A DNA stretch of 52,687 nucleotides, taken from the IMG/VR virus record IMGVR_UViG_3300033067_001777, positions 1-52,687 of that record; one strand, written 5' to 3'. The first letter of the stretch is position 1. Each line of letters starts with the position of its first letter. This document shows, piece after piece, positions 1 to 52,612 of the stretch. This DNA comes from a virus (lineage: Duplodnaviria > Caudoviricetes). The notes beneath the pieces are model-generated. The model worked only from the letters and a program-made list of their open reading frames with translations. It was not told the DNA's origin and made no database searches. The translations under genes were made by a program, and so were the position numbers.

Positions 1-81
1 ATGACCATCACCAACGAGGCAGTCCTAGCGATTCAGTCGCTCCGCAGGCCGAGACGTAAACGCAAGTCAGAGAACGCATAG
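1..81 (+). CDS. 3' end of a cassette ORF (probably partial) terminating inside an attC site
   Basis: Frame MTITNEAVLAIQSLRRPRRKRKSENA* ends at TAG 79-81 within the attC arm, matching the pattern of the other cassette genes. Confidence 0.5.
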   Translation: MTITNEAVLAIQSLRRPRRKRKSENA

Positions 82-165
82 CTCTGCCATGACTGCCCGC
101 CCCATAGCTCCGCCCTCGCTACCGACTCCCGCCGGGCAGTCATTGGCAGCAGCGTCTTGTTCCCA
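69..165 (-). mobile_element. attC: attC recombination site (97 bp)
   Basis: AGAGAAC-GCATA-GCT-CTGCCA-TGACTGCCC ... GGGCAGTCA-T-TGGCAG-C-AGC-GTCTT-GTTCCCA: AAC/GTT boxes, unpaired 5-nt spacers, two extrahelical bases 6 nt apart. Confidence 0.88.
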
Positions 166-1003
166 CTCTTCGTGGCCTGTTGTGGTCTCATTTGGGGGCG
201 GGACGAATAGCGCCGCAATGCTGATCGAGATGGCGCGCCGTGGCGTGGTGCCTGACCTCATCACGTTCGCGGACACGGGCGGCGAACTGCCAGAAACGAT
301 TCAGTTCGTGGCGGACTTTTCGCAATGGTTGGTCGCTCATGGAATGCCGCCAGTCGTGACGGTAAGCGATGGCCGCAGGACACTGGAAAGCGAAGTGCGC
401 GAAGCGGGAACGCTGCCGTCTCTGGTCTTCGGCTTCCGGTCGTGCTCCGATAAATACAAAGTCCGCCCGCAGGAGCGATACCTGAAGCAATGGCAGCCTG
501 CACTGGACGCATGGGCAGCGGGTGGAAAGGTCGTGAAACTCATCGGCTACGACGCCGGAGAAAAGCACCGCGTGAAGGACTTCGATGATGCCCGCTTCAT
601 GGTCGCCTATCCGCTCGTCGAATGGAACTGGCGGCGGGCGCAATGCGTGGACGTGGTGGAAGCCGCAGGCTTCCGGCCTGCCAAGTCCGCCTGCTTCTTC
701 TGTCCGGCCTCCAAGCGCGGCGAAGTGCTCGCCCTCGCCAAGACTCACCCGGATCTGTTCGCTCGGGCCGTAGCGATGGAGCGCGGCGCGAGTGCGGCAA
801 CCACGGTCAAAGGTCTAGGTCGCAACTGGCGATGGGAAGACCTCGTGAAAGCTGACGATGCGCAAATGAAACTGTTCGATGAACTCCCCGACGCCGTTCC
901 GTGTGGCTGCTACGATGGCGGCTCCGGTGATTGGGGGAACGCTTTGCATGAGCTACCGCCGCCGTGTGGCTCCGAATGCAACCAAGACGCTACCGGCGGT
1001 TAG
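89..1003 (+). CDS. PAPS-reductase-like (PP-loop, Cys-rich) protein carried as an integron cassette
   Basis: VVSFGGGTNS PP-loop, FADTGGELPET, RSCSDKYK, KSACFFCP, PCGCYDG; both termini are encoded by attC arms. Confidence 0.8.
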   Translation: MTARPIAPPSLPTPAGQSLAAASCSHSSWPVVVSFGGGTNSAAMLIEMARRGVVPDLITFADTGGELPETIQFVADFSQWLVAHGMPPVVTVSDGRRTLESEVREAGTLPSLVFGFRSCSDKYKVRPQERYLKQWQPALDAWAAGGKVVKLIGYDAGEKHRVKDFDDARFMVAYPLVEWNWRRAQCVDVVEAAGFRPAKSACFFCPASKRGEVLALAKTHPDLFARAVAMERGASAATTVKGLGRNWRWEDLVKADDAQMKLFDELPDAVPCGCYDGGSGDWGNALHELPPPCGSECNQDATGG

Positions 1004-1022
1004 CTCCATGCAATTGTTCACC
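934..1022 (-). mobile_element. attC: attC recombination site (89 bp)
   Basis: GGGGAAC-GCTTTG-CAT-GAGCTA-CCGCCG ... CGGCGG-T-TAGCTC-C-ATG-CAATT-GTTCACC; same geometry as 69-165. Confidence 0.88.
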
Positions 1023-1036
1023 ATCCGTTACACGCT

Positions 1037-1351
1037 ATGAAAACAGAAGAAGCCCACCTCCAAGCAGCCCAAGTGCTGAAACAAGATAGCATTCTGCGCA
1101 CCCGTCTCGAACGAGTGAGATCGCGAATGCAAATACACATCGCAGACGTGAAGCGCGAGATCGACAGCCTCAGCGAAGCCCTGACCGTGGAATACACGGG
1201 TCACGTTGCGCTGCTCAAGCAGACTCACGAAGGCTGGACATGCCTCGCATGTGTGGACTCGTGCAACCTGCCGCCCGATGTGCCGGAAGACTTCGACCTC
1301 TGCCTACCAATCCCGAAACCGGAGACGATGCCCGAATGGGAAGGATGGTGA
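1037..1351 (+). CDS. hypothetical protein (first, attI-proximal cassette)
   Basis: 104-aa ORF bounded by GTTCACC (1016-1022) and its exact reverse complement GGTGAAC (1347-1353); coiled-coil-like N-terminus and CxxC. Confidence 0.7.
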   Translation: MKTEEAHLQAAQVLKQDSILRTRLERVRSRMQIHIADVKREIDSLSEALTVEYTGHVALLKQTHEGWTCLACVDSCNLPPDVPEDFDLCLPIPKPETMPEWEGW

Positions 1352-1373
1352 ACAGTTCTTCCACGAAATGAAC
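1347..1373 (-). mobile_element. attI: putative attI site (crossover G|TTCACC on minus strand)
   Basis: GGTGAAC closes the first cassette but has no attC hairpin behind it; it lies 14 bp before the intI ATG. Extent beyond the core box is a guess. Confidence 0.65.
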
Positions 1374-2360
1374 ACCGCCGTAACAGCAAAATCTCCGCAA
1401 AAAGCGAAATCGAGGCGGTTGCGCGATGAGTTTGCGGACTGGATGAGGATGAAGAATTTCAGGCCGAACACGATTCGAGACTATGTGTCGGACGTGTTGG
1501 ATTTTGTTCTATTCCACGGAAAGCGAGATCCGCGTGAGATGGGTGCGGCGGAGGTTCAGCAGTTTCTCACGATGCTGGCGGTGCAGCGGGATGTTGCCTG
1601 GAAGACGCAGAATCAGAATCTTTGCGCTCTGGTGAAGTTTTATGACTATTTCCTCCAGCGTCCGCTGGGCGACATCGGGAAGTTTGTGGCGTCCTCCCGC
1701 CCGGCGAAGCTACCAGTTGTGTTTTCGGTGGAGGAGGTGAAACGGGTGCTGGGTGCCATGCGCGGGGCCACAAAATTGGCGGCGATGCTGCAATATGGTT
1801 GCGGGCTGCGTGTGGGCGAGGTGGTGCGGTTACGGGTGAAGGATTTGGATTTCTCGCGCGGCGTGGTGGCGGTGATAGAAGGCAAGGGTGGTGGATGCAG
1901 GCAGGTGCCGTTACCTGAGTCCGTGCGTGGGCCGATGACGGAGCATCTGGCGCGGTTGAAACTGCATTTTGATCAGGATGGTGGGTGGCTGGTTTCGCTG
2001 CCAAACTGCTACGGTGTCAAGAATCCGGGAGCGGAGAGAGAGTGGCACTGGCAGTATGTTTTTGCGGCGCGTGATCTGGCGATTGATCCAAAGGATAACC
2101 GGCTGAAACGATACCATATCTTTGAAAAGACAGTGCAGCACGCGGTGAAGCTGGCGCTAGGCGTGGTGGGTGTGACCAAGAAGGCGAGCACTCACACGTT
2201 CAGGCATTCGTTTGCCACACATTTGCTGGAGGCTGGCACGCCGATTTACGATGTGCAAAAGCTCCTGGGGCATAAGCGCATCGAGACGACGATGATTTAC
2301 AATCACGTCGCATCTCCGGCCGAGAAGAGAATCAAGAGTCCATTGGACGCGTTCGCGTGA
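1368..2360 (+). CDS. intI: integron integrase (IntI-family tyrosine recombinase)
   Basis: N-terminal FHGKRDPREMGAAEVQQFLTMLAVQRDVAWKTQNQ; catalytic GLR, GKG, HTFRHSFATHLL, LLGH, TMIY; IntI-specific insertion VSLPNCYGVKNPGAEREWHWQYVF; C-terminal SPLD. Start taken at ATG 1368. Confidence 0.93.
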   Translation: MNTAVTAKSPQKAKSRRLRDEFADWMRMKNFRPNTIRDYVSDVLDFVLFHGKRDPREMGAAEVQQFLTMLAVQRDVAWKTQNQNLCALVKFYDYFLQRPLGDIGKFVASSRPAKLPVVFSVEEVKRVLGAMRGATKLAAMLQYGCGLRVGEVVRLRVKDLDFSRGVVAVIEGKGGGCRQVPLPESVRGPMTEHLARLKLHFDQDGGWLVSLPNCYGVKNPGAEREWHWQYVFAARDLAIDPKDNRLKRYHIFEKTVQHAVKLALGVVGVTKKASTHTFRHSFATHLLEAGTPIYDVQKLLGHKRIETTMIYNHVASPAEKRIKSPLDAFA

Positions 2361-2662
2361 TGGGACAGCTCAGGGACATTCGCGAAGGGGAGGCCAAGTT
2401 CCGGTTCTGGAACGAAAAGCCGTTTGATCCAGTGGAGGCGGCGGCGCAAGGAGACCGGGCGCACTACAATCGCGTGCTGGGTCGTGTGCTGATGCCGGAC
2501 AGTTATTTTCCGCTCGGGACTCAGCACAGGGAGAAGACGATGCGCAATGTGCCGGTAAAGTATTACCGCTGGCTGCTTGCGCAGCCATGGTTCGCGACCA
2601 GTGATGGGTGGGCACCGGTGAGGGACTATCTGGAGAGGTTTCCGGTGTCGGAATTACCGTGA
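2357..2662 (+). CDS. hypothetical protein, DUF3820-like small domain
   Basis: FPLGTQHREKTMRNVPVKYYRWL resembles the MPFGKHKG..VP..YL.W motif; overlaps the intI stop (GTGA). Confidence 0.5.
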   Translation: MMGQLRDIREGEAKFRFWNEKPFDPVEAAAQGDRAHYNRVLGRVLMPDSYFPLGTQHREKTMRNVPVKYYRWLLAQPWFATSDGWAPVRDYLERFPVSELP

Positions 2663-2854
2663 ATTTGTGGGTCTGGAGGGGTCGCGCGTACGTGTGCGTG
2701 AGGATCGGATCTCGACGCAAGAAAACGGAATTGAGTCAAACGAACTGAGTTTTCCGGGCATGTGATGTCCGCGACTGGCAACGGTCGCGGAATTTTTGTG
2801 CCATGGAAAAATAAGTGTTGCCATTTCCAGCGCGAGAGTTCATAAATCAGACAA

Positions 2855-4057
2855 ATGTCTGAGGTATTGACCCAGCCAGCGGCGGTGACAGAAGCGACGA
2901 CGGAGGTTTTGACCCCGGCGGCGATCAGCGTGCCACCCGCACCCACGACGGCCTCCGGCACCCAGCCGGCGGATGGAGCCACAACTCCAACCCAACCGAT
3001 TGCAACGCCGTCATCGGCGGGCGCGAAGACGGGTTTGACTGTGGGGGAAATCAAGACGCAAGATCATCTCGACGAATTTGTCCGGGCGATTGAGGCGGGC
3101 ACGGTGAAGGATTTGGCGTTGGAACCAGCGCCAGCGCCCGCAGCTCAGGCGGTGGAACCGCCGGTCACACAAGAAGCGGGCGCGGACGCCATTGATGAGC
3201 CAGCGCCTGCTGCTGAGCGGCTGGACGAGCCGTTGTTTCCGGGTGACAAGCCCAACCACCGGAAGGTGCCAACCAAAGACGATCCTCTGGCTTTTGAAGC
3301 CCTGCGGATTTTTACGGAGAGGAAGCTCTCCGGCAAGCCGATCACGCTGACCGAGGCTGAAGCCCTCGGCAGGCAGGTGCTTGGCTTGGAGGCGTCCGCG
3401 CCGACATCAGCACCCGAGGCGCTGACACAGCCACCTGAAACGGAACAGCCGCCAAGCGAGAAGCTGCCAGCAAGCAGCACCGAAACCATCGCGGAGATGA
3501 AACGTCTGACGGCAGAGCGTAACAAGCTTGCCAACGGCTTCCGCTGGGATGAAGCGAATGAGATCGATCAAAAACTGATCGATCTCGCCGAGCACCGCGA
3601 CAATTTGCGCAACGAAGAGAGCCGCCGCCGGGACGAATCATCGAGCTACACTTCGGACTGGAACAAGGCCGCCACGGCTGAGGCCAGCCGTCTGCAAGCG
3701 CAGGGCGCTGGCAATCCAAAGTCTGCGCTGGAGATCGTAGCCGCTGCCGTGCAGTTTGAAATGGTTGAATCGAGCGATCCTCGTTTGCGGAATCCGTTGG
3801 AAGCGCCGCGTCTCATTTATCAGGAGGCGCTTACCCGTCTCGGTCACAAGTCCGCCGCGCCCTCAAATGCGCAGCCGGACGCCATTTCCCCTGCCCCCAC
3901 AGTCCAACCCGCCCCGCACCGCGCGCTGTCACCAGCGCAGGCATTGCTAGCCAGCACATCGAGTGCCGGCGCACCACCCGGTCAGGCGAAGATGGACTTG
4001 AGTACGATCAAGAACGGCCACGATCTCGACCAGCTTATCGCTGCGATGAAATTGTGA
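2855..4057 (+). CDS. probable capsid scaffolding protein
   Basis: Ala/Pro/Glu-rich with coiled-coil, immediately upstream of the major capsid gene. Confidence 0.6.
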   Translation: MSEVLTQPAAVTEATTEVLTPAAISVPPAPTTASGTQPADGATTPTQPIATPSSAGAKTGLTVGEIKTQDHLDEFVRAIEAGTVKDLALEPAPAPAAQAVEPPVTQEAGADAIDEPAPAAERLDEPLFPGDKPNHRKVPTKDDPLAFEALRIFTERKLSGKPITLTEAEALGRQVLGLEASAPTSAPEALTQPPETEQPPSEKLPASSTETIAEMKRLTAERNKLANGFRWDEANEIDQKLIDLAEHRDNLRNEESRRRDESSSYTSDWNKAATAEASRLQAQGAGNPKSALEIVAAAVQFEMVESSDPRLRNPLEAPRLIYQEALTRLGHKSAAPSNAQPDAISPAPTVQPAPHRALSPAQALLASTSSAGAPPGQAKMDLSTIKNGHDLDQLIAAMKL

Positions 4058-4149
4058 AGCTGGATTGATCTCTTGAGCCGCCAAGCCACGGCCAAAAACC
4101 AAACAACTCACCCTCGGGCGCGGGCAATTCGTTGCGCCTATCCGCTTTT

Positions 4150-5640
4150 ATGGCTTTTGAAATTCTTTCCCCGAATACAGGGGCGACTCTGGCAGCACAA
4201 ATCGACCCGGCAGAACTGTGGGCACGCGCCGTTCTCGTGTCCGAGGGCGACGAAGATCCCTTCATGGATCTTGAAGGAGGGTCTGACAGTATCATCGAAA
4301 CGAAAACCGAGACTGCCGCCGGCGCTGGTAGCACGATCAATTTCCGCGTCTCCGCTGACTTCGGCGACGAAGGCATGATCGGCGACGAACTCCATGAGGA
4401 GTCCGACGATTACGAGGCCATGAAATTTGGCCAGTTTCAGCTCACTGTTGACTGGCTGCGCCACGCCACCCGCTGGACGAAGCGCGGTGTGGAGAGCATG
4501 GGCCTGCTCAATGAGATCGTCGATCAGGTGCCGCAGAAGCTCGGTCGCTGGCTCGGTGTGCAGAAAAGCCACCGTTTGCAGATGACCTATCTGCATAAAA
4601 CCACGGCGGACAACCAGTTCTACACGGCCGCCAATGAGGACGCGATCACGATGTCGAACTGCCTGACCTATGATGAGATCATCAAGGGTGGCGCGATTCT
4701 TCAGCCGCTCGGTGGCTCGCCTGCGCGTCTGGGCAAGGATACCGAAGGGAATTCCATCTGGGGTGCTTCGGTCATCGCCACGAACAATGCGACGTACGGG
4801 CTGAAGAAAGATTCCGTCTATCGGCAGAATCTCCAGAACGGAGCCGTGAAAGGCATGAGCAATCTGCTCTGGTCGGGTGGTCTCGCCAACATCGACGGCC
4901 ATTACATTCGTGAATACACGCCTAAACGTGGCGACATCGAGGGTGCCGTCGGCTCCCCGATGAATCCGCAGGCGTTGCTCGGTGTTGCGATCACGGCGGC
5001 GACAACGACGTTTGACATCAAGGGCGGGCGCAACCCCACGAGTGCGGCGAAGACGAAAAAGAAGTACTTCAAGTTTTTCCCCAAGAACGCCTATCGCTTC
5101 ATCACGAGCGATACGCTTTCCACCACCAGCAAGGTGTGCTGGAATCTGCGTCCTCTGGGCGCGGATGGCTCGACCGCGAACGTGTTTTACGTGCGCATCA
5201 CCAATCCGCCGAATGCGGCGACCGATCCCGGCAAGTGGGGCATGTATGAGATCAGCGCGAACGACGGCAACAAATTGACGGTCAGCGCGCGCCTCGGGCC
5301 GACGAGCAACAGCGGCATTCGCTACACCACGCTCGGCGCGGTGACGTATTCCGCCGGCACTCACACCACGGAGCACGCGGCGGGTTCGCTCATCACGCTG
5401 TGCAACAACCGTGGCGTGCCGCTTGGCGCGACTCTCTTCCTCTACCGCCAGTCGGCGTATCGTGGCTACGGCTCGGTGCGCAACGAGCGCACACAGGATC
5501 AGAATGACGGTGGGTTCGTTCAGAACCGCTACATCGCCAGCGTCTTCGGGCAGTGCGTGCGCAAGGATGCGGATGGAAACATGCCGGCGGTGGCGGTCAT
5601 CAAGCACGCCATTCACTACCCAGGTATCATTGATGCGTAA
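4150..5640 (+). CDS. major capsid protein (N4-gp56/DUF4043-like)
   Basis: AGSTINF...GDELHEESDDYEAMKFGQFQLTVDWLRHA resembles the N4-like MCP N-terminus; strong codon bias; followed by hairpins. Confidence 0.75.
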   Translation: MAFEILSPNTGATLAAQIDPAELWARAVLVSEGDEDPFMDLEGGSDSIIETKTETAAGAGSTINFRVSADFGDEGMIGDELHEESDDYEAMKFGQFQLTVDWLRHATRWTKRGVESMGLLNEIVDQVPQKLGRWLGVQKSHRLQMTYLHKTTADNQFYTAANEDAITMSNCLTYDEIIKGGAILQPLGGSPARLGKDTEGNSIWGASVIATNNATYGLKKDSVYRQNLQNGAVKGMSNLLWSGGLANIDGHYIREYTPKRGDIEGAVGSPMNPQALLGVAITAATTTFDIKGGRNPTSAAKTKKKYFKFFPKNAYRFITSDTLSTTSKVCWNLRPLGADGSTANVFYVRITNPPNAATDPGKWGMYEISANDGNKLTVSARLGPTSNSGIRYTTLGAVTYSAGTHTTEHAAGSLITLCNNRGVPLGATLFLYRQSAYRGYGSVRNERTQDQNDGGFVQNRYIASVFGQCVRKDADGNMPAVAVIKHAIHYPGIIDA

Positions 5641-5748: not shown

Positions 5749-6102
5749 ATGATCAAGGCCATCATTTACCTGCCTGACCAGAGCCGCTACACGCCGCGCG
5801 TGGATTCGTTCATGCGCGCCGAGGAGTTCGGCGCACGGCTCGTGTGGCAGGCTCGGGCGCTGAGCGTCGATGAATTCAACCGCGAATTTCCAGCCATCGT
5901 AAAAGACTCACGGCTTAAATGGGGCGTCGAGCCCTGTGTTGAGCTGGTTGAGGATGCAGAGGTTTCCGCGCAGGAGTTGCCGACGCCACGCAAGAGAGGC
6001 CGGCCCCAAAAAGCCCTGAAGCCCGTGGCTGAGATCAAGAAATCCGCTGAGCCGGTCAAGGCTCCAAAAACAAGGCCGGAGGCCCATGTCATCGCTGCCT
6101 GA
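5749..6102 (+). CDS. hypothetical protein
   Basis: ATG after AAGGA; AT-hook-like RKRGRP near the C-terminus. Confidence 0.6.
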   Translation: MIKAIIYLPDQSRYTPRVDSFMRAEEFGARLVWQARALSVDEFNREFPAIVKDSRLKWGVEPCVELVEDAEVSAQELPTPRKRGRPQKALKPVAEIKKSAEPVKAPKTRPEAHVIAA

Positions 6103-6113
6103 AATCTTCAAGA

Positions 6114-6968
6114 ATGATCGTCGAACCCTCCATCCGACCAGATTTGATGAAACGGCACGCGATGCTGCGGCAGCGTGCGGATGATTTCATTGGTCAGGGT
6201 GCGGCGGCGATGCTCACGGGTAGAGACGGCGTGGTGGTGATGGCTCGGAGCGAGTTGCTTTCCGGCTCGGTTTCCACCAGTGAAATGCCGGTCACGAATC
6301 CCATCTCTCAATTGTTTGAGTCGGCGTTGTCGGATGAAACGCTGAAGGCTGGCATCGCCCGTATGACACTTGAGGAGGAATTGGATCAGGATGCCAATCC
6401 ACCCGTGTTGCACGAGCGGTTCGATGGTCAGGTGGCGTATGTCAATGGGGCAGGTGTCGGACTCAATCCTCGGCCCTTCTCCGCCGGGTTTATGGGAGGT
6501 GGAGATTGGTATGTGCCAGGCGGACTGGTCAGGTTTTCGCGCTATCGTTACGATGGGCCGACGTTCGTTGGCGAAGATCCACAAGTGGAGTTTCCAGTCG
6601 AGGACGCGGTGATCCGACATTTCCATCAGGGGTGGATCGTGGCTCTCATCAGGGGCCACATGGTCGCAGGCGGCAAGGATTCGTACATGCACATCGAATC
6701 GATGCAGATCGTGCAGGCCGACCACGGTTTCCAAACTGACTACTCGTTCATTCTCGATGGATTCAATCAGGCCACCGAAAGCATTTCGTACGCGATGCTG
6801 CCGCTCGCGTACGTCATCTCTCCCAACGTCATCGGCAACAAGTCGCCCATCGTCTATGACGAGGCTCGCTACGGTGATCCAACAATTCACACTCCGTTTT
6901 TTACATCAACCCGGCTGCTGCTGTTTCGTCCGCAGCAGCACTGCTTCAAACCCGCCGGCTATCCATGA
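6114..6968 (+). CDS. hypothetical virion protein
   Basis: 284-aa ORF in a tightly packed late operon. Confidence 0.55.
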   Translation: MIVEPSIRPDLMKRHAMLRQRADDFIGQGAAAMLTGRDGVVVMARSELLSGSVSTSEMPVTNPISQLFESALSDETLKAGIARMTLEEELDQDANPPVLHERFDGQVAYVNGAGVGLNPRPFSAGFMGGGDWYVPGGLVRFSRYRYDGPTFVGEDPQVEFPVEDAVIRHFHQGWIVALIRGHMVAGGKDSYMHIESMQIVQADHGFQTDYSFILDGFNQATESISYAMLPLAYVISPNVIGNKSPIVYDEARYGDPTIHTPFFTSTRLLLFRPQQHCFKPAGYP

Positions 6969-7479: not shown

Positions 7480-8844
7480 ATGAGTGCTCTATCCAATTCT
7501 TCCGAAAAATCTCTGCTCGATTGGTCTTTTGGTTCTGCGACATGGTCTGGCAAGCCGACGGTGTTGTATTTTGGACTTCTCACCAGCGCGCCATCGGACA
7601 CAGGTGGTGGCACGGAAGTCAGCGCCGGTGGTTATGCGCGTTCCTCGCTGGCTGTGGGCATCACAAATTTCAACCGTCTTCTCGTCCAGGGCGGCAGCAT
7701 GACGAATAAGGTGCCAGTCGCCTTTCCTCGCGCGACGGCAAATTGGGGCACCATCACGCATGTGGCGGTCTATGACGCCAGCAGCGGAGGAAATCTGGTC
7801 TGGTGGCAGCCGTTGTCGTCATCGAAGACGATCAATGAGGACGATACCTTCACATGGGCAGCCGGCGAGCTGTCGTGGAGCTTGTCGGGAAGCTTCGGCG
7901 GATTGCTCTCACTCGCGGCGCTGAATTACATGTTTTGCAATTTGAGTGCGCCATCGTGGAGTTCGATCTACTACATCGGTCTCGGCACCGGATCGAGTGG
8001 CGCGGCTCTCACGGGGGAAGCCAATGGTGGTGGCTACACTCGTCTCGGCATCAATAACATCGGCTCGTTCTCGACGGCGGATGCGCTGGGCAGTCCGCAG
8101 AAAACCAATGCGGTCGATTTCAATTTCGCGGCAGCTTCGACCGATTGGAATGGCGGGCCGTTCACGAATTTCGCCATCTCGCTGGATGCGCGCAAAAGCA
8201 GCGCCATCAATGGCTACTGGATCAATGGTCACGGCAGTTTCCCGAACTGGATTCAAACTGCTGCCGCGCATGGACTGGCAGTCAATGACAAGGTGAGGTT
8301 CCATGGGACAGCTTCGACGGGAGGACTCGTTCCGGGCAATCTCACGGCTGACACGGTTGATTATTACGTGAAATCGGTGCCCACGAGCACGACGATCATC
8401 GTTGCGCTCACCATTGGCGGTGCGGCTGTTGCGCTGGACGCCACTGTATCTGCTTCGCGAGGTCAGGTCGAAAAGATCGTGAGCCCGACCACATGCACGG
8501 CGGCGACGAATGATATTTGGACGAGCGCCAGTCATGGGCTCATGGATGGCGATACTGTCCGCCTCTACAACACGACGCCGGCAAATTTGCCGACGGTTGG
8601 AGGCACGGCACTCGACATAGCCACGGACTATTTCGTGATCAATGCGACCGTGTCCACTTTCCAACTGGCTGCCACCGCTGGCGGCCCGGTTCTCGACATC
8701 GACGGTGCTGGCACGGTCCCGCACTATGTCATTCGCCAGAACGATCACATCATTTGGCATGGCGAAACCGGTGGATCTCTCGTGGTTCTCAACACCAACC
8801 AGCCTGGTTGGACTCAGGGAAAACTCGGACTTTCGGTTGACTGA
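7480..8844 (+). CDS. tail fibre / structural protein with duplicated modules
   Basis: N-terminal LYFGLLTSAPSDTGGGTEVSAGGYAR...FPRATANWGTITHVAVYDASSGGNL module with a second divergent copy; two HGLxxxDxVR...DY[YF]V repeats. Confidence 0.7.
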   Translation: MSALSNSSEKSLLDWSFGSATWSGKPTVLYFGLLTSAPSDTGGGTEVSAGGYARSSLAVGITNFNRLLVQGGSMTNKVPVAFPRATANWGTITHVAVYDASSGGNLVWWQPLSSSKTINEDDTFTWAAGELSWSLSGSFGGLLSLAALNYMFCNLSAPSWSSIYYIGLGTGSSGAALTGEANGGGYTRLGINNIGSFSTADALGSPQKTNAVDFNFAAASTDWNGGPFTNFAISLDARKSSAINGYWINGHGSFPNWIQTAAAHGLAVNDKVRFHGTASTGGLVPGNLTADTVDYYVKSVPTSTTIIVALTIGGAAVALDATVSASRGQVEKIVSPTTCTAATNDIWTSASHGLMDGDTVRLYNTTPANLPTVGGTALDIATDYFVINATVSTFQLAATAGGPVLDIDGAGTVPHYVIRQNDHIIWHGETGGSLVVLNTNQPGWTQGKLGLSVD

Positions 8845-14791: not shown

Positions 14792-15207
14792 AACCGCCGG
14801 TGAGCCAGATCATGCGCTGCACTCACGATGTCATGTATCGCCGGGTCACGCTCGATCTCACGTTCCAGCCACGCGAGCAGTTCTTTTGCCTTTGCGTCCT
14901 TCACGGGTCGCGTCTTCTCGCTTTTCAGCGTGATGAGCACACGCGCCTCGGCACCTGTCGGCACATGGTCGCGTAGATAGGCCAGTAGGAAATCGTCCGC
15001 CAGCTTTGGCTCGCCATTCCTGCGCAGCGCCGCTTCCACCTGTCCCGCCCGATCGCTCTCCAGACTGCCTTTATCGCGCACATAGATGGCAAATGAGTGC
15101 GACACCTCCGCCAGTTCCTCAAACGACTTGAGCGTCTTCGTCCGGCACCACGTCTGGATGAGTTCCGACACATGCCGGCGCGGCGGTATTTGATTGCCCT
15201 TCTTCAT
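14788..15207 (-). CDS. hypothetical protein, possible DNA-binding regulator
   Basis: Coupled downstream of the integrase; helical. Confidence 0.5.
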   Translation of the reverse strand: MKKGNQIPPRRHVSELIQTWCRTKTLKSFEELAEVSHSFAIYVRDKGSLESDRAGQVEAALRRNGEPKLADDFLLAYLRDHVPTGAEARVLITLKSEKTRPVKDAKAKELLAWLEREIERDPAIHDIVSAAHDLAHRRF

Positions 15208-16349
15208 GCAGCAGATCCTCCGGGCGACAACTGCGCGGGCAGGTAGTGGTTCCGCGTCGTTTTATCCGAGGTATGGCGCGCCGCTTTTGCCGTCACCTTC
15301 AAAGCCTCCGCTTGCAAACGCATCATCTCCGTATTCTTCACGGCCTCGAGGTAGGCCGCCCGCAGCCGGTGCAGCGGTTTGGCAATGTCGGATTTCACGC
15401 CCATGAACTGCCGCAGCCACAATTGAGGGGTTGCCTTGAACCATTGCGCACGGCTGCCGGTCAATGGCACGGCGAGCCCGTCAGGAGAAAGAGACCGAAG
15501 AGCCTCGATCAGCTCCGCATTCAAAATGGGCGAGAGTCCGGCGAACCCCGTCTTGCAGTAATAGTTCTCTTCGGGCCGGTCCCGCACCTCGATACACCAC
15601 ACGCCCTCGGTGTTCATCAGCCAGCCGCCCCGGCAGTTCGCGATTTCTTCTTTGCGCAGGCCCGCAAACCGCGCGATACCAATCGTCCACCAAAGAGCCG
15701 AAGAGTGTGGCAACTCACTCCACGCGGCCAACATACCCGCCTCATCGAAGCGGCCGGGCACCCTCTTCACTTCCTGCAACCATTGGATTTTTCCGGCGGT
15801 TGGCATCTCGATCCCGTATTCACGATAGCCTTCGCGCAGCGATTCAATGAGCAGCGACCGTGCCGCCCGCACGGCGGTGTTGATCGTGGTGTGAGCAGGC
15901 CGGCGAATCGACAAATCAGCCCTCACTCCGCCCTGTCTGAGAGCAAAGAAATTCATCCATAGTTTCGGCGTGATCTCATGCAGCCGGATCGACTTCAATG
16001 GCCGATTGAGGACATCGCGCAGCACGGCCGTGAATTGCTGGATGTTGTACTTCTCCGATCTCAACCCCGCCCGTTTCGATAGCATTCGGTAAGCCTCGAC
16101 GAGATCGTGAGCCGTGCGCGCCGTCGGCATCGGCGCATTTGATTTCAAGCGCTCCAGGTGTTCCCGAGCGCGCGTCTGTGCCAGCCTTTCATTGAACGTC
16201 CCGGTGCAAAAATTCACCGGGTGAGAAGCCGCTCGCGAGCGCAACCGAAGCCCGAACCGGTCCTTCACCAGAGGATACTCCCGTCCATCGAACTTCAACA
16301 CGCAGCGGCGCGCGGTTCGTGGGTCGGGCAAAAGTCGGGCGCTGCGCAT
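15204..16349 (-). CDS. int: phage tyrosine integrase
   Basis: FAGLRKEEI, CKTG, LHRLRAAY, ARHT, NHY catalytic motifs; adjacent to the tRNA fragment. Confidence 0.85.
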   Translation of the reverse strand: MRSARLLPDPRTARRCVLKFDGREYPLVKDRFGLRLRSRAASHPVNFCTGTFNERLAQTRAREHLERLKSNAPMPTARTAHDLVEAYRMLSKRAGLRSEKYNIQQFTAVLRDVLNRPLKSIRLHEITPKLWMNFFALRQGGVRADLSIRRPAHTTINTAVRAARSLLIESLREGYREYGIEMPTAGKIQWLQEVKRVPGRFDEAGMLAAWSELPHSSALWWTIGIARFAGLRKEEIANCRGGWLMNTEGVWCIEVRDRPEENYYCKTGFAGLSPILNAELIEALRSLSPDGLAVPLTGSRAQWFKATPQLWLRQFMGVKSDIAKPLHRLRAAYLEAVKNTEMMRLQAEALKVTAKAARHTSDKTTRNHYLPAQLSPGGSAA

Positions 16350-16416
16350 GGCAAACCAATCAACTCCCAATCAGTCCACAATCAAGTCAGAATCGTGTTT
16401 CAAGAAGGGAAACAAG

Positions 16417-19258: not shown

Positions 19259-19323
19259 GATTTGTTCCTTTCCTTTAAGGTTCATCATATAAACAATTGT
19301 CAAGGTTAACAACTGCATTCATA

Positions 19324-21612
19324 ATGACCGGCAAAATGGCCGGCGGAAATCTCACATCGCAGATTCAGAGCTTGCTGCCACGGCTGCCGCCGCCCCGTGG
19401 CCGGCGTGGCGACGAACTCATGGTCGTGGTGCCCAGCGCCGCGACGGCGAACATGACGCGCGAGACCGAGGACCGGCTCATGGCGCACCTGCGCAGGCGC
19501 AAGGATGACATGTCCTCACAACAGGGACGGCTGGATTACGGAGCCGCCGGATGGCTGAGCAATAACAACACGGGCGCAGTGCGACAGCAGGCGAGGTCGT
19601 TCATGGGAAAGCAGTACCTCTGCCACCAGATTTTTCAGGGAAACTACGATTGGAGGCCGGCGCTGATGGGCGGCATCTACGTTGACAGCAATCTGCATTT
19701 CCCGCTCACCCGGCGCATCCTGCTGCAACAAATAGCGCGGGCGATTGCGTCCTTCACGGGCAGCGATCCGTGGTTCACGGCGTATGATGTGAACATCAGC
19801 GACACCGATCTGGCCGACAAGGTGGAGCGGTGGATGCGGTTCGAGGGCGATCAATCGAAGCTGACCGATGTGGTGAATCAGGCGATTCGTCTGGCCTTCA
19901 TCCAGGGTCAGCAGGTGGTGGAGACGCTGCATGAGAGCGTGTTTGATTTCTACAAGACGTACGCCAACGTGGCAGTGGATGCCAAAGGTGTGCCGTTGGC
20001 GGCGAAAGATGGCGATTACATTTACGACAGCGACCTTTTCATTCCGTACTCGCAGACGGATGCGGGCAAGCTGGCGATGATGCAGGCACAAGAGGCGGCA
20101 GCCGCCGGGGAGCCCGCGCTGCCACCGCCGAATGATCTGGTGCTGAAACGCGATGGCGCGACTCCGAAGCCTTCGGTGATGAATTTTGCGCGCAAACTGA
20201 TCGACAAGCGCATCGAACACAAACAGGGAGCGAAGTCGTCTTGCATTCACTACCTCGATTTTCTCGCGCCGTTGACGGTCGATGACCTGGACACGGCCGA
20301 CACGATTTTCCGCTTTTACAATGAGCCGGTGTTTTCGCTGGTGGGCAAGCTGCTCGACATGGACTGGAAGGGCACGGGCGTGGCACCGGCGGAGCAGCTC
20401 GAACGCATTAGCGAGGCCGTGCATCGGCTCATCGGCGTGGCCGGCGGTGATCGGCTGAGCGGAGCAAATCAGTCGCGTGACGAGCTGATGGAGGCGCAGA
20501 ACTCGCAGGGTGTCGATACCTTTGAACCGCTTGGAGCGTTTGCCCGCGCTTACACCTTCTTTGACATCGATGGTGATGGCCGCTCGGAGAATCTGATGAT
20601 CATCACCGATGACCAGATGCAGGTTCCGATTTACATCGATTATCTGGCTAACGTGACCTGGAATGGCCGTCGCAATCTGAACTCGGTGCGGGTGAATCCG
20701 GTGGCGAACCGGTGGCATGGGCAGAGTCAGGTGGAAGTCTTTGGGCAACTCCAAGACATGATCGATCTCGGCGTGAACCGAGCCAACTTTTCGCAGATGT
20801 CGAGTGGCTGGATCGACTTCGTGAAATGGAACAAGCTGGACATGCCGCCGGGTGCGAAGTTGGAACTCAACGGCGGCACGCTCAATCGGGTGCGCGACGA
20901 TGCGCAGATGGAAGACGTTTACCACCGCGTGCAACTCTACAACACGAAGTACGCCGATATCCGCGACTTCATCGAGCTGCTGATTCAAATTGCCGTGAAT
21001 ATGAGCGGCGTGGCGAGCGCGAACGACAGCCGCATGGCGAACCTCGACACCGGAGAACTGGCGACTGGGATCAAAAACATCGAGAACAGCGGCGATGAAT
21101 TGTTTGGCGTGTTCATCGTCGATCTCAAGGCCGGCGTGGAGGACATCATCAAGAACTTCGGACAGACCAGCGTGCTGCACATGGACAAGGCGCGGGCGTT
21201 CAAATACTTTGAAGGCGAACTCGGCAGGCTGGCGACGATCACACCGGAAGAAGTGCGTGATTTGAAGCTGGACGTGAATCTCGCCCTGGCGCGTGCTCGC
21301 AACATGCAGGACGCTCAGGCAGGCATGGCGGCCTGGGCGGTGGGCAAGGAATTTTACACGCTGCTGCCGCCCGAGGTGCAGCAACGGCTCATGCCGCTGG
21401 CTCGCCGACTGATGAAGGCATATCAGCAGAAAGATGCGGACGAGATCATTCAGGCCATGCAGCCGGCGATGATTGATCCTGCCACCGGTCAGCCCGTGGC
21501 GGGTGCGCCTGTGAATGGAACGGAATCCGCCGCGCCTCTGGCTGCATCCGCTCCGCCGCTTTACGCGCTGCCACCTCCGGCACAGCCACAAAATCAACCT
21601 CTCGCGGCATGA
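19324..21612 (+). CDS. portal protein
   Basis: FDIDGDGRSE, RWHGQSQVEVFGQLQDMID and ATGIKNIE motifs of P22/N4-type portals; about 760 aa. Confidence 0.8.
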   Translation: MTGKMAGGNLTSQIQSLLPRLPPPRGRRGDELMVVVPSAATANMTRETEDRLMAHLRRRKDDMSSQQGRLDYGAAGWLSNNNTGAVRQQARSFMGKQYLCHQIFQGNYDWRPALMGGIYVDSNLHFPLTRRILLQQIARAIASFTGSDPWFTAYDVNISDTDLADKVERWMRFEGDQSKLTDVVNQAIRLAFIQGQQVVETLHESVFDFYKTYANVAVDAKGVPLAAKDGDYIYDSDLFIPYSQTDAGKLAMMQAQEAAAAGEPALPPPNDLVLKRDGATPKPSVMNFARKLIDKRIEHKQGAKSSCIHYLDFLAPLTVDDLDTADTIFRFYNEPVFSLVGKLLDMDWKGTGVAPAEQLERISEAVHRLIGVAGGDRLSGANQSRDELMEAQNSQGVDTFEPLGAFARAYTFFDIDGDGRSENLMIITDDQMQVPIYIDYLANVTWNGRRNLNSVRVNPVANRWHGQSQVEVFGQLQDMIDLGVNRANFSQMSSGWIDFVKWNKLDMPPGAKLELNGGTLNRVRDDAQMEDVYHRVQLYNTKYADIRDFIELLIQIAVNMSGVASANDSRMANLDTGELATGIKNIENSGDELFGVFIVDLKAGVEDIIKNFGQTSVLHMDKARAFKYFEGELGRLATITPEEVRDLKLDVNLALARARNMQDAQAGMAAWAVGKEFYTLLPPEVQQRLMPLARRLMKAYQQKDADEIIQAMQPAMIDPATGQPVAGAPVNGTESAAPLAASAPPLYALPPPAQPQNQPLAA

Positions 21613-24461: not shown

Positions 24462-27400
24462 ATGCTTCCACCACCCCCACCTTCCCGCCGTCCACCTGGA
24501 ACACCGGTTCAGCCGCCGACACTGAGAGCGCCGAGGATGGGGGCGGAGCCGGCGCAGCCGATGGCTGACCTCGATCCGCGCAAGTTCACGACACCGGCTT
24601 TTCGGCAGGCGTTTGCCGGTCAAATCCGGGACATGGACGCGGCGGACAATGGCGCGCAGAGAGATCAGGCGCGCGCCGAGAAAGCGGCCGAGGCTGAGAA
24701 GGTGCGGCAGCACAATCTGATGGTGAAACCGCAGTACGCGGCGGAGAATCGACCGACGTTCATCGATGCCGATCACTACATCCGCCCGAAGCACGATGAT
24801 GCGACGTGGCAGCAGATGCAGGCCGCGAAGCAAGCGAAGGATGCGCTCGGAGCTTCGAACAAGCAGGTGATGTCTGAACTGTCGGTCCAAGGTCGGAAGC
24901 ATTTTGTCAATCCGGCCACCGGTGCCGTGGAGCCGACGGAGAGCGAGGATGCGTTTCAGGCACGGCAGGCTGCCGAGACGGCGGCGGCCGCTGAGAAAGC
25001 CCGTGTAACAGGCTTGTCCCATCAAATCCAGTCGCTTGGTGCCGAGGCGGAGCTGAACCGGCCCGGCATGACGGACAAGCAGCGCGAGAAGGCCGGCGAG
25101 GCGCTGGCACGCGCTCATCGTGATGCTGTGGCGACAAAGGCGATCCCGGCGCTTTCCGCGAAGGTTCAAGAGTTGGACAAAGGTTCAAAAGGTTCCACAT
25201 GGAACCCTTTCGACAACGATCCGGCAAAAGCTCAGGAGGCGGAGACGGCGCGCGCGCATCTGAACGATCTCAACGACCGGCTCATGAAGGCCGGAGATAA
25301 AGGCACGGTCGATCTCACGTCCGAAGACGAGAGTCTGCTGGATGCACCGACACTCACGGCACTGAAGACGGCGCGCGAGAATCTGGCAAAGCATGACGAG
25401 GTGTCGCAGGCACACACGGCGCTGGTCGATCAACAGCGCGATTTGAAGCTCCGTCTGGCTGATCCGCAGAAATGGGAGGCTCTGCAAATGCAGAAGCTCG
25501 GCACGCTGCCGCCCGATCAACTGGACGCGGAGATTGAGCGCCGGAAGTCGTTGCTCGAAGAACGCGGGGTCGCCATTCACGAGAAAGCCGCCGGGCATGA
25601 GGCTCTGGTTGCGCAACACGAAAAGCAGCTCGCCGATATTGAGCAGGAGAACAAGGACATCCTCAATAAAGGGGTCACGGCTGGCGATCTGATGACGGTT
25701 GCGAAGCCGGACGGCACTACGGAAGACTGGCATCGTGGCGTGGCCGCGAAGTATTTCCGCACTCTCCAGGATGCCGGCGAGATCGACAAACAGGCGAAGG
25801 AACTCCGGCCCGTGCTTCAGTCCGATGCGGGCGATTACGAGCAGGAGCGGCGCATTCTGAATGCGGCCATCGAACGCAAGAACGGTGTAGCGGAGCAGCA
25901 AAAGCAGGATTTTCTCGGCACCCTGCGCGCCGATCCATCCACGGCACCACACGCCGATGCGCTGGAGGCACTGGATGCGGATGCGAAGATCCGCGCGGGC
26001 GATCTCGATACGATGTACACGCCCGGCAGTCCTGAGCACACGGCGGCGATGCAGGCGCTTCAGGAGGACGTGCAAAAGAATCGCGAGGGCATCCTTCAAT
26101 CCGCCGGTGCCACCAAGCAGGCCAAACACGAAGCCGGTGCGCAGCTCTATCAGCAACTCAAGGATTTCAATCCTGAAATCGACTGGACCAAGCCCGAGGG
26201 CGGTCAGAACGACATCCCGCAACAGATGATTCAGCGCAAGGCTCAGGAACTCGGTCTCAGCCCCGAGGAAGCCACGCGGTCACTCCAACTGCAAAAGGCC
26301 GCTGACTGGACCGTGCCGCATGAGCAGGGTATTCTCGAAAAGGTGGGCATCGGCGTGCCGAATCCCTTTGCCGTGCTGCCGTGGATTCGCGGTGACAAGG
26401 CCACCGCTGAGAGAACGATGGTGGCGACCCCGACCCTCGACGATCTCACGCTGCATTTTTTCCGCAAGGAAGACGTGGCACCGGAGCAGTATCGTGTGCT
26501 GCCAAATGGTGTGCTGTCGGTGAATCCGGCGCTCACGTTCACGCCCGATGCCTTCAAGAAGGCGGTCGATGCGAGTCCGGCGACACCGGAGGCCAAGGCG
26601 CAAGCGCTCGCTCAACGCGAGCAGATGGCACTGGAAGGCGGCAAGAATGCGCTGCCGATTCTCGAAACCACCAGCGAATATCCCGCGTGGATCGCCGCGC
26701 AGACGAAGAAAGACGCCTCGCTCGCCACCCTGCCACCCGAAGCACAGGCCGCGAAGTTTCTGGAACAACGCGATCAACGCGCATGGGCGGGCAAGCTGGG
26801 TGATCAGCTCCGCGTCGGCGTGGGCAATGCGATCCTTGGCCTGGCTCAAACGGTCACAGGCACCGCTTTGCTCGCCACCGGCTCCGACACCGCGCGCGAT
26901 CTCACGCTGGCGCTGGATGCCAAGCGGCAAAAGAATGCGCAGCAGCTTGATGTGATCGGCAGTTCCTCCGACCGTGTGCTGCGCACCATCGGCAGTCTGA
27001 CTGACAACGCTCTGCAAATGGTGGGCACGCTCGGCGCGGGTGCCTTTGCGGGCAAGATGGCGCGGTTCGGATCGAAGCTGGCGACGGCCGCCAAGGCTGC
27101 GGGCACGATGGAAGAATTCAGTCACGGCATGGCCGCGCTCGGCAAACTCGAAGCGCAGGGATTCACCACCGCGAGTGCGAAGCTGGTGGAACGCGCGCAG
27201 ATGGCCGGCAGCGGCATCGGCGAGGGATTGCAGGCGGCGAGTCAGATGTACCCGGAGGCGTTCACGGCCTACAAGAAGCAATACGTCGAGCAGGGCATGA
27301 GCGACAAAGACGCCACGGCAGCCGCTCACAAAAGCGCGCTGCTGCCGGTGCTGACGAGTGCCTTCACCACGAGCGTCATCGGCTACCTGGGCGGTGCCAG

Positions 27401-38843: not shown

Positions 38844-39095
38844 ATGAAAAGGAGATCGTTTTTCGGAAGGCTGCTGGGCGGAGTCGCGGCGGCGTGCGGG
38901 GTGAAGTCGTGCGAGATGCCGGTGCCGGCGCATCCTCCATCCGAGTTGATGTTGGATTACTTTCGTTTCTTTCCCGCCTATCAGTTCTCATTCACACAAG
39001 AAGCCCGGCTCGTTGATTACGCTAATCGACGAGGGCATGAGATCGGGCGCGAACTGGGAACCGGGAACCCTGAACATGGAACCGTGCAGCCATGA
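38844..39095 (+). CDS. hypothetical protein with a twin-arginine-like N-terminus
   Basis: MKRRSFFGRLLGGVAAA; coupled to ssb. Confidence 0.5.
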   Translation: MKRRSFFGRLLGGVAAACGVKSCEMPVPAHPPSELMLDYFRFFPAYQFSFTQEARLVDYANRRGHEIGRELGTGNPEHGTVQP

Positions 39096-39559
39096 ACATC
39101 ACCATCCTGAAAGGCAACATCACGCGGGATCTGGAGGTGACGTTCACGCCGAAGGGAACGGCGGTGTGTGAGATCGGGCTGGCGGTGAATGATGTGTGGT
39201 TCAATGACGCCGGCGAGAAGCAGGAGGAAGTGACCTTCCTCGACTGTCGCGCCTGGGGCCGTGCGGCGGAGGCCATCGGCAAAAACTTCTACAAAGGCAA
39301 ACCGATCTTGATCCATGGCAAACTCAAGCAGGAGCGCTGGGAGGATAAGGAGACGGGCAAGAAGCGCAGCAAGACGCTGATCATCGTGCAGCACTGGGAG
39401 TTCTGCGGGGACGTGCGGGGCGCGCAGCGCGGGGAAGACAAGGAGACTCGGAGTGGAGGAGATGGGGAGAGGTCGCCGGCAAGGCCAGCGCCGCCTCAAC
39501 GGGCTGAGTCCGCCGAGGAGATGGCGGGCGGGTTTGAAGAGGATGACATCCCGTTCTAG
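39092..39559 (+). CDS. ssb: single-stranded DNA-binding protein
   Basis: GNITRDLEVTFTPKG, CRAWGRAAE, C-terminal EDDIPF. Confidence 0.95.
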   Translation: MNITILKGNITRDLEVTFTPKGTAVCEIGLAVNDVWFNDAGEKQEEVTFLDCRAWGRAAEAIGKNFYKGKPILIHGKLKQERWEDKETGKKRSKTLIIVQHWEFCGDVRGAQRGEDKETRSGGDGERSPARPAPPQRAESAEEMAGGFEEDDIPF

Positions 39560-49455: not shown

Positions 49456-50196
49456 ATGAAAGAAAGACCCTTACTTTTCAGTGCGCCGATGGTGCGTGCG
49501 GGCCTGAAGGACCGAAAGAGCCAGACGCGGCGCATTTGTCAGGCTCGTACGCAGAATGAAGCCGACATCATGGCTGGCGCGATCATGGATGACATGAACG
49601 GTGCGGATGACGGGATACACGAGAAAGCAACCTGGGAGAGATTTGGCTGCCCTTACGGCCTGCCGGGGGACCGGCTGTGGGTGAGAGAGACGTGGAAAAC
49701 CTGCCTTGCTTATGATGATTATTCCCCTTCTCAGATTGATTCAGGGGCAGCGGTGCAATGGCTGGCTGATGGCGCGAAACGGTTGAATGGGCCGGAAGCG
49801 TTCGGTAGAACACGGGTTTCGATTCACATGCCCCGTTGGGCAAGCAGACTGACGCTGGTGGTCGTGGCGGTGCGCTGTGAGCGCTTGCAGGACATCACCG
49901 AGACTGATGCGTGGAAAGAGGGCATCGGCACCGAAGGCAAGCCGCTGGAGGCGCTGGCGAACCTGTGCATTATCTACCCAAAGACAGACCTGGGCCGACT
50001 GGCTGCCGATGACATGACGCTGTTCCAGTTTGGCGATGACCGGAAGACGCTCAGTGATTACGAGAAGGTCGTGAGCACCACGGGCCGGGGTTGCTTTGCC
50101 TACCTTTGGGAGTCCATCAACGGACCCGGCGCGTGGGCGCGGAATCCGTGGGTGTGGGTGGTGGAGTTTCGGAGGATCGCCAACCCAACAAACTGA
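49456..50196 (+). CDS. ASCH/PUA-like phage protein
   Basis: MKERPLLFSAPMVRA..KSQTRR, CPYG..GDRLWVRETW, SIHMPRWASR, NPWVWVVEF. Confidence 0.85.
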   Translation: MKERPLLFSAPMVRAGLKDRKSQTRRICQARTQNEADIMAGAIMDDMNGADDGIHEKATWERFGCPYGLPGDRLWVRETWKTCLAYDDYSPSQIDSGAAVQWLADGAKRLNGPEAFGRTRVSIHMPRWASRLTLVVVAVRCERLQDITETDAWKEGIGTEGKPLEALANLCIIYPKTDLGRLAADDMTLFQFGDDRKTLSDYEKVVSTTGRGCFAYLWESINGPGAWARNPWVWVVEFRRIANPTN

Positions 50197-52331: not shown

Positions 52332-52375
52332 ACCAACAGGCAGCGCCCGCCGTTGCCAGCACCAAATTGTTAGCC
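52286..52375 (-). mobile_element. attC: distal attC site with a non-canonical (GAT) crossover box
   Basis: GCAGATC-GACAAT-GGT-CTGGCA-CGGCGGGTGC ... GCGCCCGCCG-T-TGCCAG-C-ACC-AAATT-GTTAGCC. Confidence 0.85.
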
Positions 52376-52378
52376 CTT

Positions 52379-52612
52379 ATGTATGCCGAAATGACCAACT
52401 CAGACTTCATCTGCGCACTGGCAGATGCGGCCCACCCGTTTGAACAACCAAGTGCGGAACACGCCGATCTAATGGATGAGGCCGCGCGGCGCATCCGAAA
52501 ACTGGAGGCGCAAGTCATGGCGTGGGAATCCGCCGCTGATATGGCGAGTGGTGCCGACACTCCCGATGGACTTCGCAACTACATCAGCGCCTGTAGCATC
52601 GCGTGTGGATAA
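52379..52612 (+). CDS. hypothetical protein (cassette)
   Basis: ORF bounded by GTTAGCC and GGATAAC; the stop TAA is part of the TAAC box. Confidence 0.65.
   Translation: MYAEMTNSDFICALADAAHPFEQPSAEHADLMDEAARRIRKLEAQVMAWESAADMASGADTPDGLRNYISACSIACG

Follow-up and report, generated by a model that had tools for sequence, protein, structure and literature searches.

A probable integron in a phage genome, with cassette genes running towards the integrase

Can a phage own an integron, or do integron parts on phage DNA always belong to somebody else? Integrons are bacterial gene-capture devices, and the handful of published phage cases have the look of chance captures. The question is raised by IMG/VR virus record IMGVR_UViG_3300033067_001777, called the window here, which means the whole stretch of 52,687 bases. 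The record is classed as linear, has a CheckV completeness estimate of 66% and a G+C content of 59.6%, and is most of the genome of a probably temperate tailed phage. A preliminary description proposed that this phage carries its own integron, consisting of the integrase gene intI, its attachment site attI and mobile cassettes with attC sites, and that it uses these to shuffle genes. The core of that claim is supported here. Judged from its sequence, the genome very probably bears an integron of the working type, with the cassette genes on the bottom strand of attC. It sits between the replication module and the head genes.

The integrase, IntI, is encoded at 1368-2360 on the given strand (+) and has 330 amino acids. 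It scores 319.4 bits on the NCBIfam model TIGR02249, 'integron integrase', which has a cut-off of 265. The XerD and XerC models give 139.9 and 138.5 bits, against cut-offs of 329.6 and 335.15, and the XerA model is likewise far under its own. Pfam finds the domains Phage_integrase and Phage_int_SAM_4. The best match among solved structures is VchIntIA (2a3v, E 2e-60), which aligns unbroken over residues 24-327 and shows the motifs GLRVGE, GKGG, HTFRHS and LGH...IY. A XerC-like chain covers residues 20-194 and 247-317 only. This means that residues 195-246, which that chain skips, are the insertion specific to IntI. An intact IntI with this insertion had been described before, and both the TIGR02249 score and the VchIntIA alignment through 195-246 bear this out. 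Clustering with XerC/D had been named as a test of the idea; the protein groups with IntI, with its Xer scores far below the cut-offs.

The second ingredient of an integron is attC. Three hairpins on the + strand had been noted as such, and all of them fold better than shuffled sequence and are attC-like. The site of the cassette adjoining attI is at 934-1022 (60.9 bits, E 4.4e-15, fold z -3.26), with its crossover at 939|940. The site of a cassette with a PAPS-reductase-like gene is at 69-165 (59.9 bits, E 8.8e-15, fold z -4.1; crossover 74|75). The site of the cassette furthest from intI is at 52289-52376, where + is again the bottom strand (52.2 bits, E 1.6e-12, fold z -4.45); it has a bulged T and C on its 3' arm and overlaps the 3' end of the replication-initiator gene. 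Folded as DNA, the three reach z values from -3.1 to -4.5, with none or one of 200 shuffles equally good. The regions 1330-1420 and 52600-52687 fold no better than shuffles.

The bit scores come from a covariance model, R1, which is described below. On the window it matches only 69-165, 934-1022 and 52289-52375 at E <= 1.6e-12, and the next match has E 0.73. A simple pattern scan finds the same places. It asks for 8 paired bases, a bulge, 5 paired bases, a bulge and 3 paired bases, and imposes neither the identity of the bulged bases nor the AAC and GTT boxes. It recovers the three sites on + and none on -, together with one marginal match on + at 37973-38102 that has other bulge bases.

Read along +, each site consists of a 5' box that closes with AAC (GAC at the third site), some 5 nt of spacer, a stem with two bulges on the 3' arm, and a 3' box GTTNNNN. 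The geometry was earlier given as T-N6-C-N3-N5-GTT; it is in fact T-N5-C-N3-N5-GTT, the N6 being an artefact of an ambiguous TT. The extrahelical bases lie opposite the AAC arm, with C at 16 and T at 22. According to Nivina (2016), the bottom strand of attC has AAC in its 5' arm and its extrahelical bases on the other arm, at 16 (usually G) and as a T at 23/24, and the classical central spacer is 5-6 nt. By sequence, then, the + strand of the window fits the description of an attC bottom strand, with C16 and T22.

Some sites from related loci look different in detail. The array of locus L002 holds one site, 4809-4899, with classical T-N6-G bulges in an otherwise T-N5-C array, beside a PAPS-reductase-like gene at 3961-4821. 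In 8 of the 19 sites used for R1 there is a long loop with a start context like AAAC(C/T)ATGAA, so that a cassette gene seems to begin within the hairpin loop; the 3' arm would then be translated. These are 2562-2687 and 5653-5760 in L002, 5022-5151 in L004, and 2501-2626, 4098-4232, 4462-4591, 4802-4910 and 5134-5245 in L006. The window's own sites do not have this loop.

Where does recombination take place? Before intI the window reads GGTGAAC-AGTTCTTCCACGAA-ATG. This is the predicted attI core, GGTGAA|C AGTTCTTCCACGAA at 1347-1367 (+), with the crossover at 1352|1353, 15 nt before the ATG of intI, and a core of AA|C-AGTT.TT. The site probably extends into intI. A motif like AACAGT[TG]ATT..AC stands directly before intI in the window and in L002, L003, L004, L006 and L075, with looser forms in L093 and the L065 group; across several loci, the core AA|C-AGT[TG]ATT is found 15-50 nt before intI. 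To the left of its AAC, the sequence is unrelated between loci. Conservation that begins at AA|C is what is expected of an attI joined to different first cassettes. The window thus has a predicted attI next to the 5' end of intI, as integrons do, on the evidence of this sequence conservation.

This also settles the register. The crossover lies at the AA|C box, which means that attC comes 5' of the gene in its cassette, and the register of the preliminary description has to be corrected. The other reading, in which + is the attC top strand, an attC comes after each gene and stop codons fall within the inverse core, was tried first and rejected. It is ruled out by the start of attI conservation at AA|C, by the position of the extrahelical bases opposite the AAC arm on +, and by a block shared with another sample, which spans 72-941 and not 160-1015.

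From far to near intI, the array then reads: a cassette at 52295-52614, a cassette cut by the contig end, a gap, a regulator cassette cut by the contig start, cassettes at 75-939 and 940-1352, and attI. The first of these holds a gene of 77 amino acids and no known family at 52379-52612 (+), with its TAA stop inside the GGATAAC box; the protein has no PHROG match and no relative in viral contigs. At 52609-52687 (+) come the GGATAA|C junction box (52609-52615) and the first 73 nt of the next cassette, up to the contig end. At the other end of the window, 1-74 (+) is the last 74 nt of a small XRE-like regulator cassette; the identity comes from the copy in L065, which matches PHROG transcriptional regulators. 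The gene at 89-1003 (+) is PAPS-reductase-like, an adenine-nucleotide alpha-hydrolase (PAPS_reduct E 1.8e-7; phrog_424 E 9.5e-39). Its real start may be the GTG at 182, and its final 21 codons extend into the neighbouring attC. The last cassette gene, 1037-1351 (+), encodes 104 amino acids of no known family and has its TGA stop inside the GGTGAAC box.

If these are cassettes inserted by IntI, the outer four bases of a GTTRRRY box should be complementary to the RYYY of the next site, not to that of their own hairpin. In the window the paired boxes are as noted earlier: GTTCACC (1015-1021) with GGTGAAC (1347-1353) at 7/7, GTTCCCA (159-165) with GGGGAAC (934-940) at 6/7, and GTTAGCC (52370-52376) with GGATAAC (52609-52615) at 6/7. 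Over 38 site pairs from six arrays, the match to the next site is 138 of 152 bases, and the match to the own hairpin is 78 of 152. (Four of 42 pairs were dropped because a box was not located.) Random re-pairing of the boxes gives 71.6 +/- 5.1, and none of 2000 shuffles reaches 138. The match is perfect for 27 of the 38 pairs with the next site and for 3 with the own hairpin; in L002 it is perfect in 14/14 cassettes, the one adjoining attI included. On this sequence evidence, the cassettes are discrete units with the R box split across their ends.

The related loci were found with IntI as the query. A first search of IMG/VR gave five, L002 to L006, and the 19 sites aligned from these and the window are the basis of R1. 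In the long helix of this alignment, both partners have changed in 15 of 16 pairs, and pairing holds in 95.7% of cells; with slid registers it holds in 28-44% over the whole structure. R1 was run on both strands of the window and the five loci (109,670 bases). Its matches at E <= 1.9e-5 are on + in 33 of 33 cases, and the remaining two rows have E above 0.5. Three are the window's; the other 30 (L002 14, L006 8, L003 5, L004 3) are all upstream of intI. In L006 the eight sites are followed by a mere remnant of intI (5986-6255, residues 50-118 and 353-381 only), with the attI-like core intact.

Searching again with 30 aligned IntI relatives gave further loci, including L074-L101. R1 finds two sites in L075 (whose IntI is 71% identical to the window's), twelve in L093 (38%), two in L098 and three in L088, all on + and upstream. 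L079 has one site on -, downstream of intI, and the other loci of L074-L101 have no R1 match at E <= 0.001.

As a positive control, a stricter scan was applied to 18 bacterial IntI loci (37-47% identical). It gave 33 sites in 10 loci, all 33 on the intI-sense strand and upstream of intI. The commonest form is T-N6-C (14), followed by T-N6-G (5). The polarity of attC relative to intI in the phage is therefore the classical one, and C16 is common in environmental integrons.

What is not classical is the strand of the genes. In the window and L002-L006, the longer open reading frame (ORF) is on + in 28/32 cassettes, and in L093, L075, L062 and L069 this is so in 18/19. In three bacterial arrays found with the same IntI, the longer frame is on - in 17/18. 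Overall, bottom-strand genes are found in 46/51 phage cassettes and in 1/18 bacterial control cassettes. Matches to known families all come from + frames: PAPS_reduct/phrog_424 in the window, Lar restriction-alleviation and DUF3850/ASCH in L002, an N6_N4 DNA methylase (E 8e-42) in L004, a weak methylase in L003 and an XRE-type regulator in L065. None of ten minus-strand cassette frames has a Pfam match. With its genes on +, the array reads cassette genes, attI and intI in one direction. The textbook arrangement, in which cassette genes lie on the attC top strand and are read from the promoter Pc in intI/attI, is thus not what is found here; with genes that point towards intI, a Pc directed outward from intI/attI would serve no purpose. 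Genes carried on the bottom strand of attC and facing intI match neither the classical layout nor that of Treponema.

Do the cassettes move? Ten other IMG/VR contigs match the window's first 36 bases exactly. There, in 11 copies, a likeness of 96-97% spans positions 1 to 74-77 and then stops. In 10 of the 11 the likeness ends after GAGAAC (one reads GAGAAA). After GAGAA|C there are at least six unrelated continuations, several of them attC sites; four contigs go on with an attI-like sequence and then an IntI 33.5-37.4% identical to that of the window. Upstream of the shared stretch all these contigs continue the small XRE-like gene, which the window start cuts. The break comes 5 nt before the window's stop codon, so it marks a recombination point and not the end of a gene.

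Public sequencing runs tell the same story for the other cassettes. Logan contigs of four runs, X18, X19 and X20 from one study and X1 from another, were compared with positions 1-3000. X18 contains all sampled words and may be the source sample of the window. A 912-nt contig of X19 agrees with window 72-941 at every base and departs from the window to the left and to the right of it. This block is one attC with the PAPS-reductase gene, between two AA|C points. Runs X1 and X20 have contigs that match the window from 937 onward with different sequence before, and others that match up to 1354 with different sequence after. In X1, the cassette 940-1352 has a depth of 49.9, while part of intI has about 6.8. 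Shared blocks bounded by AA|C mean that a cassette is attC followed by its gene on +, and that the register 160-1015 is not a mobile unit. As far as assembled contigs from two studies go, the cassettes are thus found to move between contexts. Their content also differs between the related arrays of L002, L003, L004 and L006, and identical cassettes occur in different contexts. A fixed gene order among relatives had been named as a result that would speak against the idea; it is not seen.

The preliminary description listed all three hairpins together. Two of them do stand together before intI; the third is at the other end of a linear contig, and its adjacency is inferred. A contig in X18 joins window 48-77 to the sequence after GGATAA|C at 52615 (starting at 52618). 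The unit that begins past 52614|52615 is thus preceded by two different sequences. In X18 the depth of the regulator cassette is 38, about double the 19.9 of the main contig. In L069, the end of the XRE-regulator cassette is present twice in one contig (876-951 and 1859-1934), in two contexts, which fits the doubled depth. Each end of the window lies 73-77 nt past a branch, as a de Bruijn assembler leaves it at a repeat. Both contig ends would then be assembly breaks inside the array, with the genome continuing through it.

The IntI itself appears to belong to the phages. In a tree of 43 IntI sequences, rooted at the midpoint only, the window, L002, L003 and L004 form a clade on a long stem with support 100/99. 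The L065-type IntI joins it weakly (88/31), and all 38 bacterial sequences are outside. Among 185,579 species genomes, one per species, the best match is 47% identical, in a scan that used peptide words of the window IntI only. In a collection of 5.8 billion proteins, about 110 of the 120 clusters listed are 50-81% identical to it. The longest contigs of these listed relatives do not exceed 81 kb, and lengths of 41-47 kb are frequent among them. The clade, with its inverted cassette pool, appears to be new.

Several observations weigh against all this. The site at 52289-52376 has a degenerate 5' box, GAC for AAC, and no hairpin can be recognised in the 73 nt that the window has of the unit after 52615. 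A protein 91% identical to that of the 104-residue frame is found in two other viral contigs with no attC nearby, so the ends of likeness may only mark gene ends. The 19 sites were picked by their pairing, which makes the covariation partly a restatement of the selection; what it does display is sequence variety under one structure. High G+C leaves both strands open in many cassettes, and 4/32 and 1/19 favour -. Phage marks are weak in L002-L004 (terminase E 9e-4; several large ORFs without a match), and a 648-residue frame after intI in L002 has neither a PHROG or Pfam match nor likeness to a 649-residue frame of the window. Copies of this type of IntI may exist in chromosomes, given a scan with the words of one protein, and one 78% relative is filed as a metagenome-assembled genome (MAG) of Pseudomonadota. 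The genome is not closed (linear, 66%), the joining of its ends rests on the graph argument, and exact-word searches for the right contig end in viral and metagenome contigs found nothing. No excised circle is seen in the run data, which are contigs and not reads; on window 1-3000, neither the cover nor any joint besides the diverged stretch 1458-1586 is informative on circles.

Could the integron be that of a bacterial host? The window might be a prophage with a flanking chromosomal integron, or a chimeric assembly. The record is incomplete and has both of its ends inside the array, the published phage integrons are for the most part pieces captured from hosts in the account of Qi et al. (2023), and the 78% relative is filed under a bacterial MAG. 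Set against this, intI abuts head genes and the array abuts the replication initiator, with no non-phage flank to be seen, and other IMG/VR contigs repeat the layout, with intI followed by phage-type genes. The gap between 47% identity in species genomes and up to 81% in metagenome relatives, on contigs of no more than 81 kb, is also hard to square with a host integron, and the cassette genes follow the phage strand, unlike those of the bacterial controls. A host origin is very improbable. It deserves still less credence that the hairpins are terminators or repeated palindromes, with an Xer-type or ordinary phage integrase beside them that resembles IntI by chance: this idea is for practical purposes refuted. 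The hairpins are indeed G+C-rich and lie between genes, and Rfam is without an attC family. An enzyme above a curated cut-off, with the Xer models far below theirs, does not fit, and neither do hairpins that are upstream of intI only and on one strand only. Bulge geometry and AAC/GTT boxes that the first scan had not asked for, a split-box match reached by 0/2000 shuffles, and a scan that recovers true bacterial arrays leave this idea a negligible chance.

A different thought is that IntI and its hairpins mainly serve to insert the whole phage into a host attC or attI, with shuffling a secondary matter. IntI can join any attC to attI, and Qi et al. (2023) describe a Vibrio anguillarum prophage flanked by attC sites. 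This phage has a separate, lambda-Int-like integrase, though. It is a divergent tyrosine recombinase at 15204-16370 (-), matching phrog_1 at a weak E of 2.1e-6, and is context here, not part of the integron. Pfam model PF00589 hits the window once only and does not detect this frame; PF00239, for serine recombinases, has no match in the window. Searches of the frame against Pfam, NCBIfam and the PDB sequences, a profile search included, also gave nothing. It does have 14 homologs, three of them named integrase by JGI, and in 12 sequences R239, K273, H334, R337, H366 and Y376 are invariant (R, K, H-x-x-R, H, Y). An AlphaFold2 (AF2) model with a mean predicted local distance difference test (pLDDT) score of 81 has 1z1b_A as its best Foldseek match (E 3.8e-6); the top structural matches are full-length lambda Int, Cre and XerH. 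On the model and the invariant residues, it is a separate lambda-type integrase. The preliminary description had assigned lysogeny to such an enzyme; the enzyme is there, and we infer the role. Up to 14 sites with different genes, a split R-box signature that speaks of many independent insertions, and single cassettes in other contexts also tell against lysogeny as the main use of IntI, although lysogeny by IntI and cassette shuffling are not mutually exclusive. That insertion of the phage is the chief purpose is most improbable.

The phage integron thus remains the preferred reading. It resembles the classical sedentary chromosomal integrons in the extra domain of IntI, the attI at the 5' end of intI, the one small gene per cassette, the attC bottom strand on the intI-sense strand, the extrahelical bases opposite the AAC arm and the split R box. 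It differs in its carrier, a phage, in its cassette genes on the bottom strand and towards intI, in the spacing of the extrahelical bases (5 bp and not 6), and in its separate IntI clade.

The earlier statement that integrons are chiefly chromosomal or belong to plasmids and transposons still holds, with the addition that phage examples have been published. From a screen of 10,705 phage genomes, Qi et al. (2023, PMC9892861) report three complete integrons, one In0 and 17 attC clusters. Their cases include Vibrio anguillarum prophages, a P1 isolate with class 1 integrons, the Shewanella prophage M16-3, and clusters of attC sites lacking an integron integrase (CALINs) in virulent phages. The IntIs described there are of host type (75% to V. 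cholerae IntIA, 95% to S. oneidensis IntI, and intI1) and are read as captured pieces. The window shares with these cases integron parts on phage DNA and DNA methyltransferase genes in the cargo of its relatives. Unlike the cases described there, its type of IntI forms its own clade on contigs of phage size, the cassettes are inverted, and the layout recurs across loci with IntIs 33-87% identical to the window's. A literature search found no IntI clade of phages' own and no arrays with inverted genes; the supplements of PMC9892861 may list more cases.

The Treponema arrangement has intI upstream of the array, with transcription of intI running towards attI (PMC3607928, PMC4889954). Going by these descriptions, the phage integron is like this inverted integron-integrase group in that intI and cassette genes have the same direction. 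The phage differs in that transcription of intI leads away from attI and the array is upstream of intI, so that the genes are turned relative to attC, and not intI. The window falls outside that group, since its attC bottom strand coincides with the sense strand of intI, as at 33/33 control sites, and its attI adjoins the 5' end of intI.

There is also a likeness to phage morons and anti-defence islands: small, variable genes, mostly anti-restriction or of no known role, which stand at a module boundary and differ between relatives. Exchange of those goes by illegitimate or homologous recombination, while here there would be dedicated site-specific machinery with defined junctions.

How might it work? 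IntI would recombine folded single-stranded attC hairpins with the attI before its own gene, cutting AA|C on +. The cassettes would need no Pc and would be read from upstream phage promoters, together with intI. What they hold would be accessory, largely anti-restriction genes, shuffled by the phage population. Replication may have a part in this. The replication-initiator gene (51174-52331, matching PHROG replication-initiation families) contains a cluster of CGGACAA repeats on both strands at 51293-51859, about 430 nt left of the array. It holds 14 of the window's 23 copies; chance would give 8.8 in the whole window. Judged by this clustering, these are probably the iterons of a replication origin beside the cassette array. 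A fork that leaves such an origin rightwards would have + as its lagging-strand template, and an origin left of the array would in this way favour hairpin folding during replication. According to Richard et al. (2024), folding and excision of attC come more easily where its bottom strand is on the lagging-strand template, and chromosomal integrons keep this strand on the leading-strand template. If the genes run with both the fork and phage transcription, and the bottom strand is on the lagging-strand template, then the genes must be bottom-strand genes. As a hypothesis, this would explain the inversion.

In its widest form the proposal is that a widespread environmental phage lineage owns a class of integron with back-to-front cassettes, often starting in the hairpin loop and silent in bacterial integrons, and that the array, just downstream of the replication origin and with its recombining strand as the lagging-strand template, has its anti-restriction and regulatory genes reshuffled at each replication. 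This wider picture is tentative, and the balance falls slightly short of favouring it. If true, viruses use the integron mechanism on their own account, with their own IntI clade, attI consensus and reversed cassette pool. There would then be a defined molecular route for the fast turnover of accessory and anti-restriction genes in phages, and constraints among attC polarity, transcription and replication direction would become testable. There is a practical warning too: annotation that expects top-strand genes would misread such arrays, and assemblies also break inside them.

The rest of the window provides the phage context. The major head protein is at 4132-5640, another head protein at 7480-8844, and the portal at 19297-21612. 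Searches of the whole window found no tRNA gene and no Rfam match. A single ORF of 4767 amino acids at 24462-38765 (+) encodes a polyvalent protein with the Pfam domains LPD37 and InPase. These are marks of 'large polyvalent proteins' in phages and conjugative elements, and are the only two domains recognised along the entire frame. Just left of the replication gene are two conserved phage genes of unknown function, matching phrog_874 (49456-50196, +) and phrog_2045 (50200-51204, +); the latter also weakly matches 'radical SAM mobile pair protein A'. In L006 and L004 there are relatives downstream of intI, which means that gene order around the integron is not fixed. Outside the array, the gene at 39092-39559 (+) has a 48% identical relative at 2687-3130 of L065, which ends at an attC of that contig's array; ordinary phage genes and cassettes may exchange.

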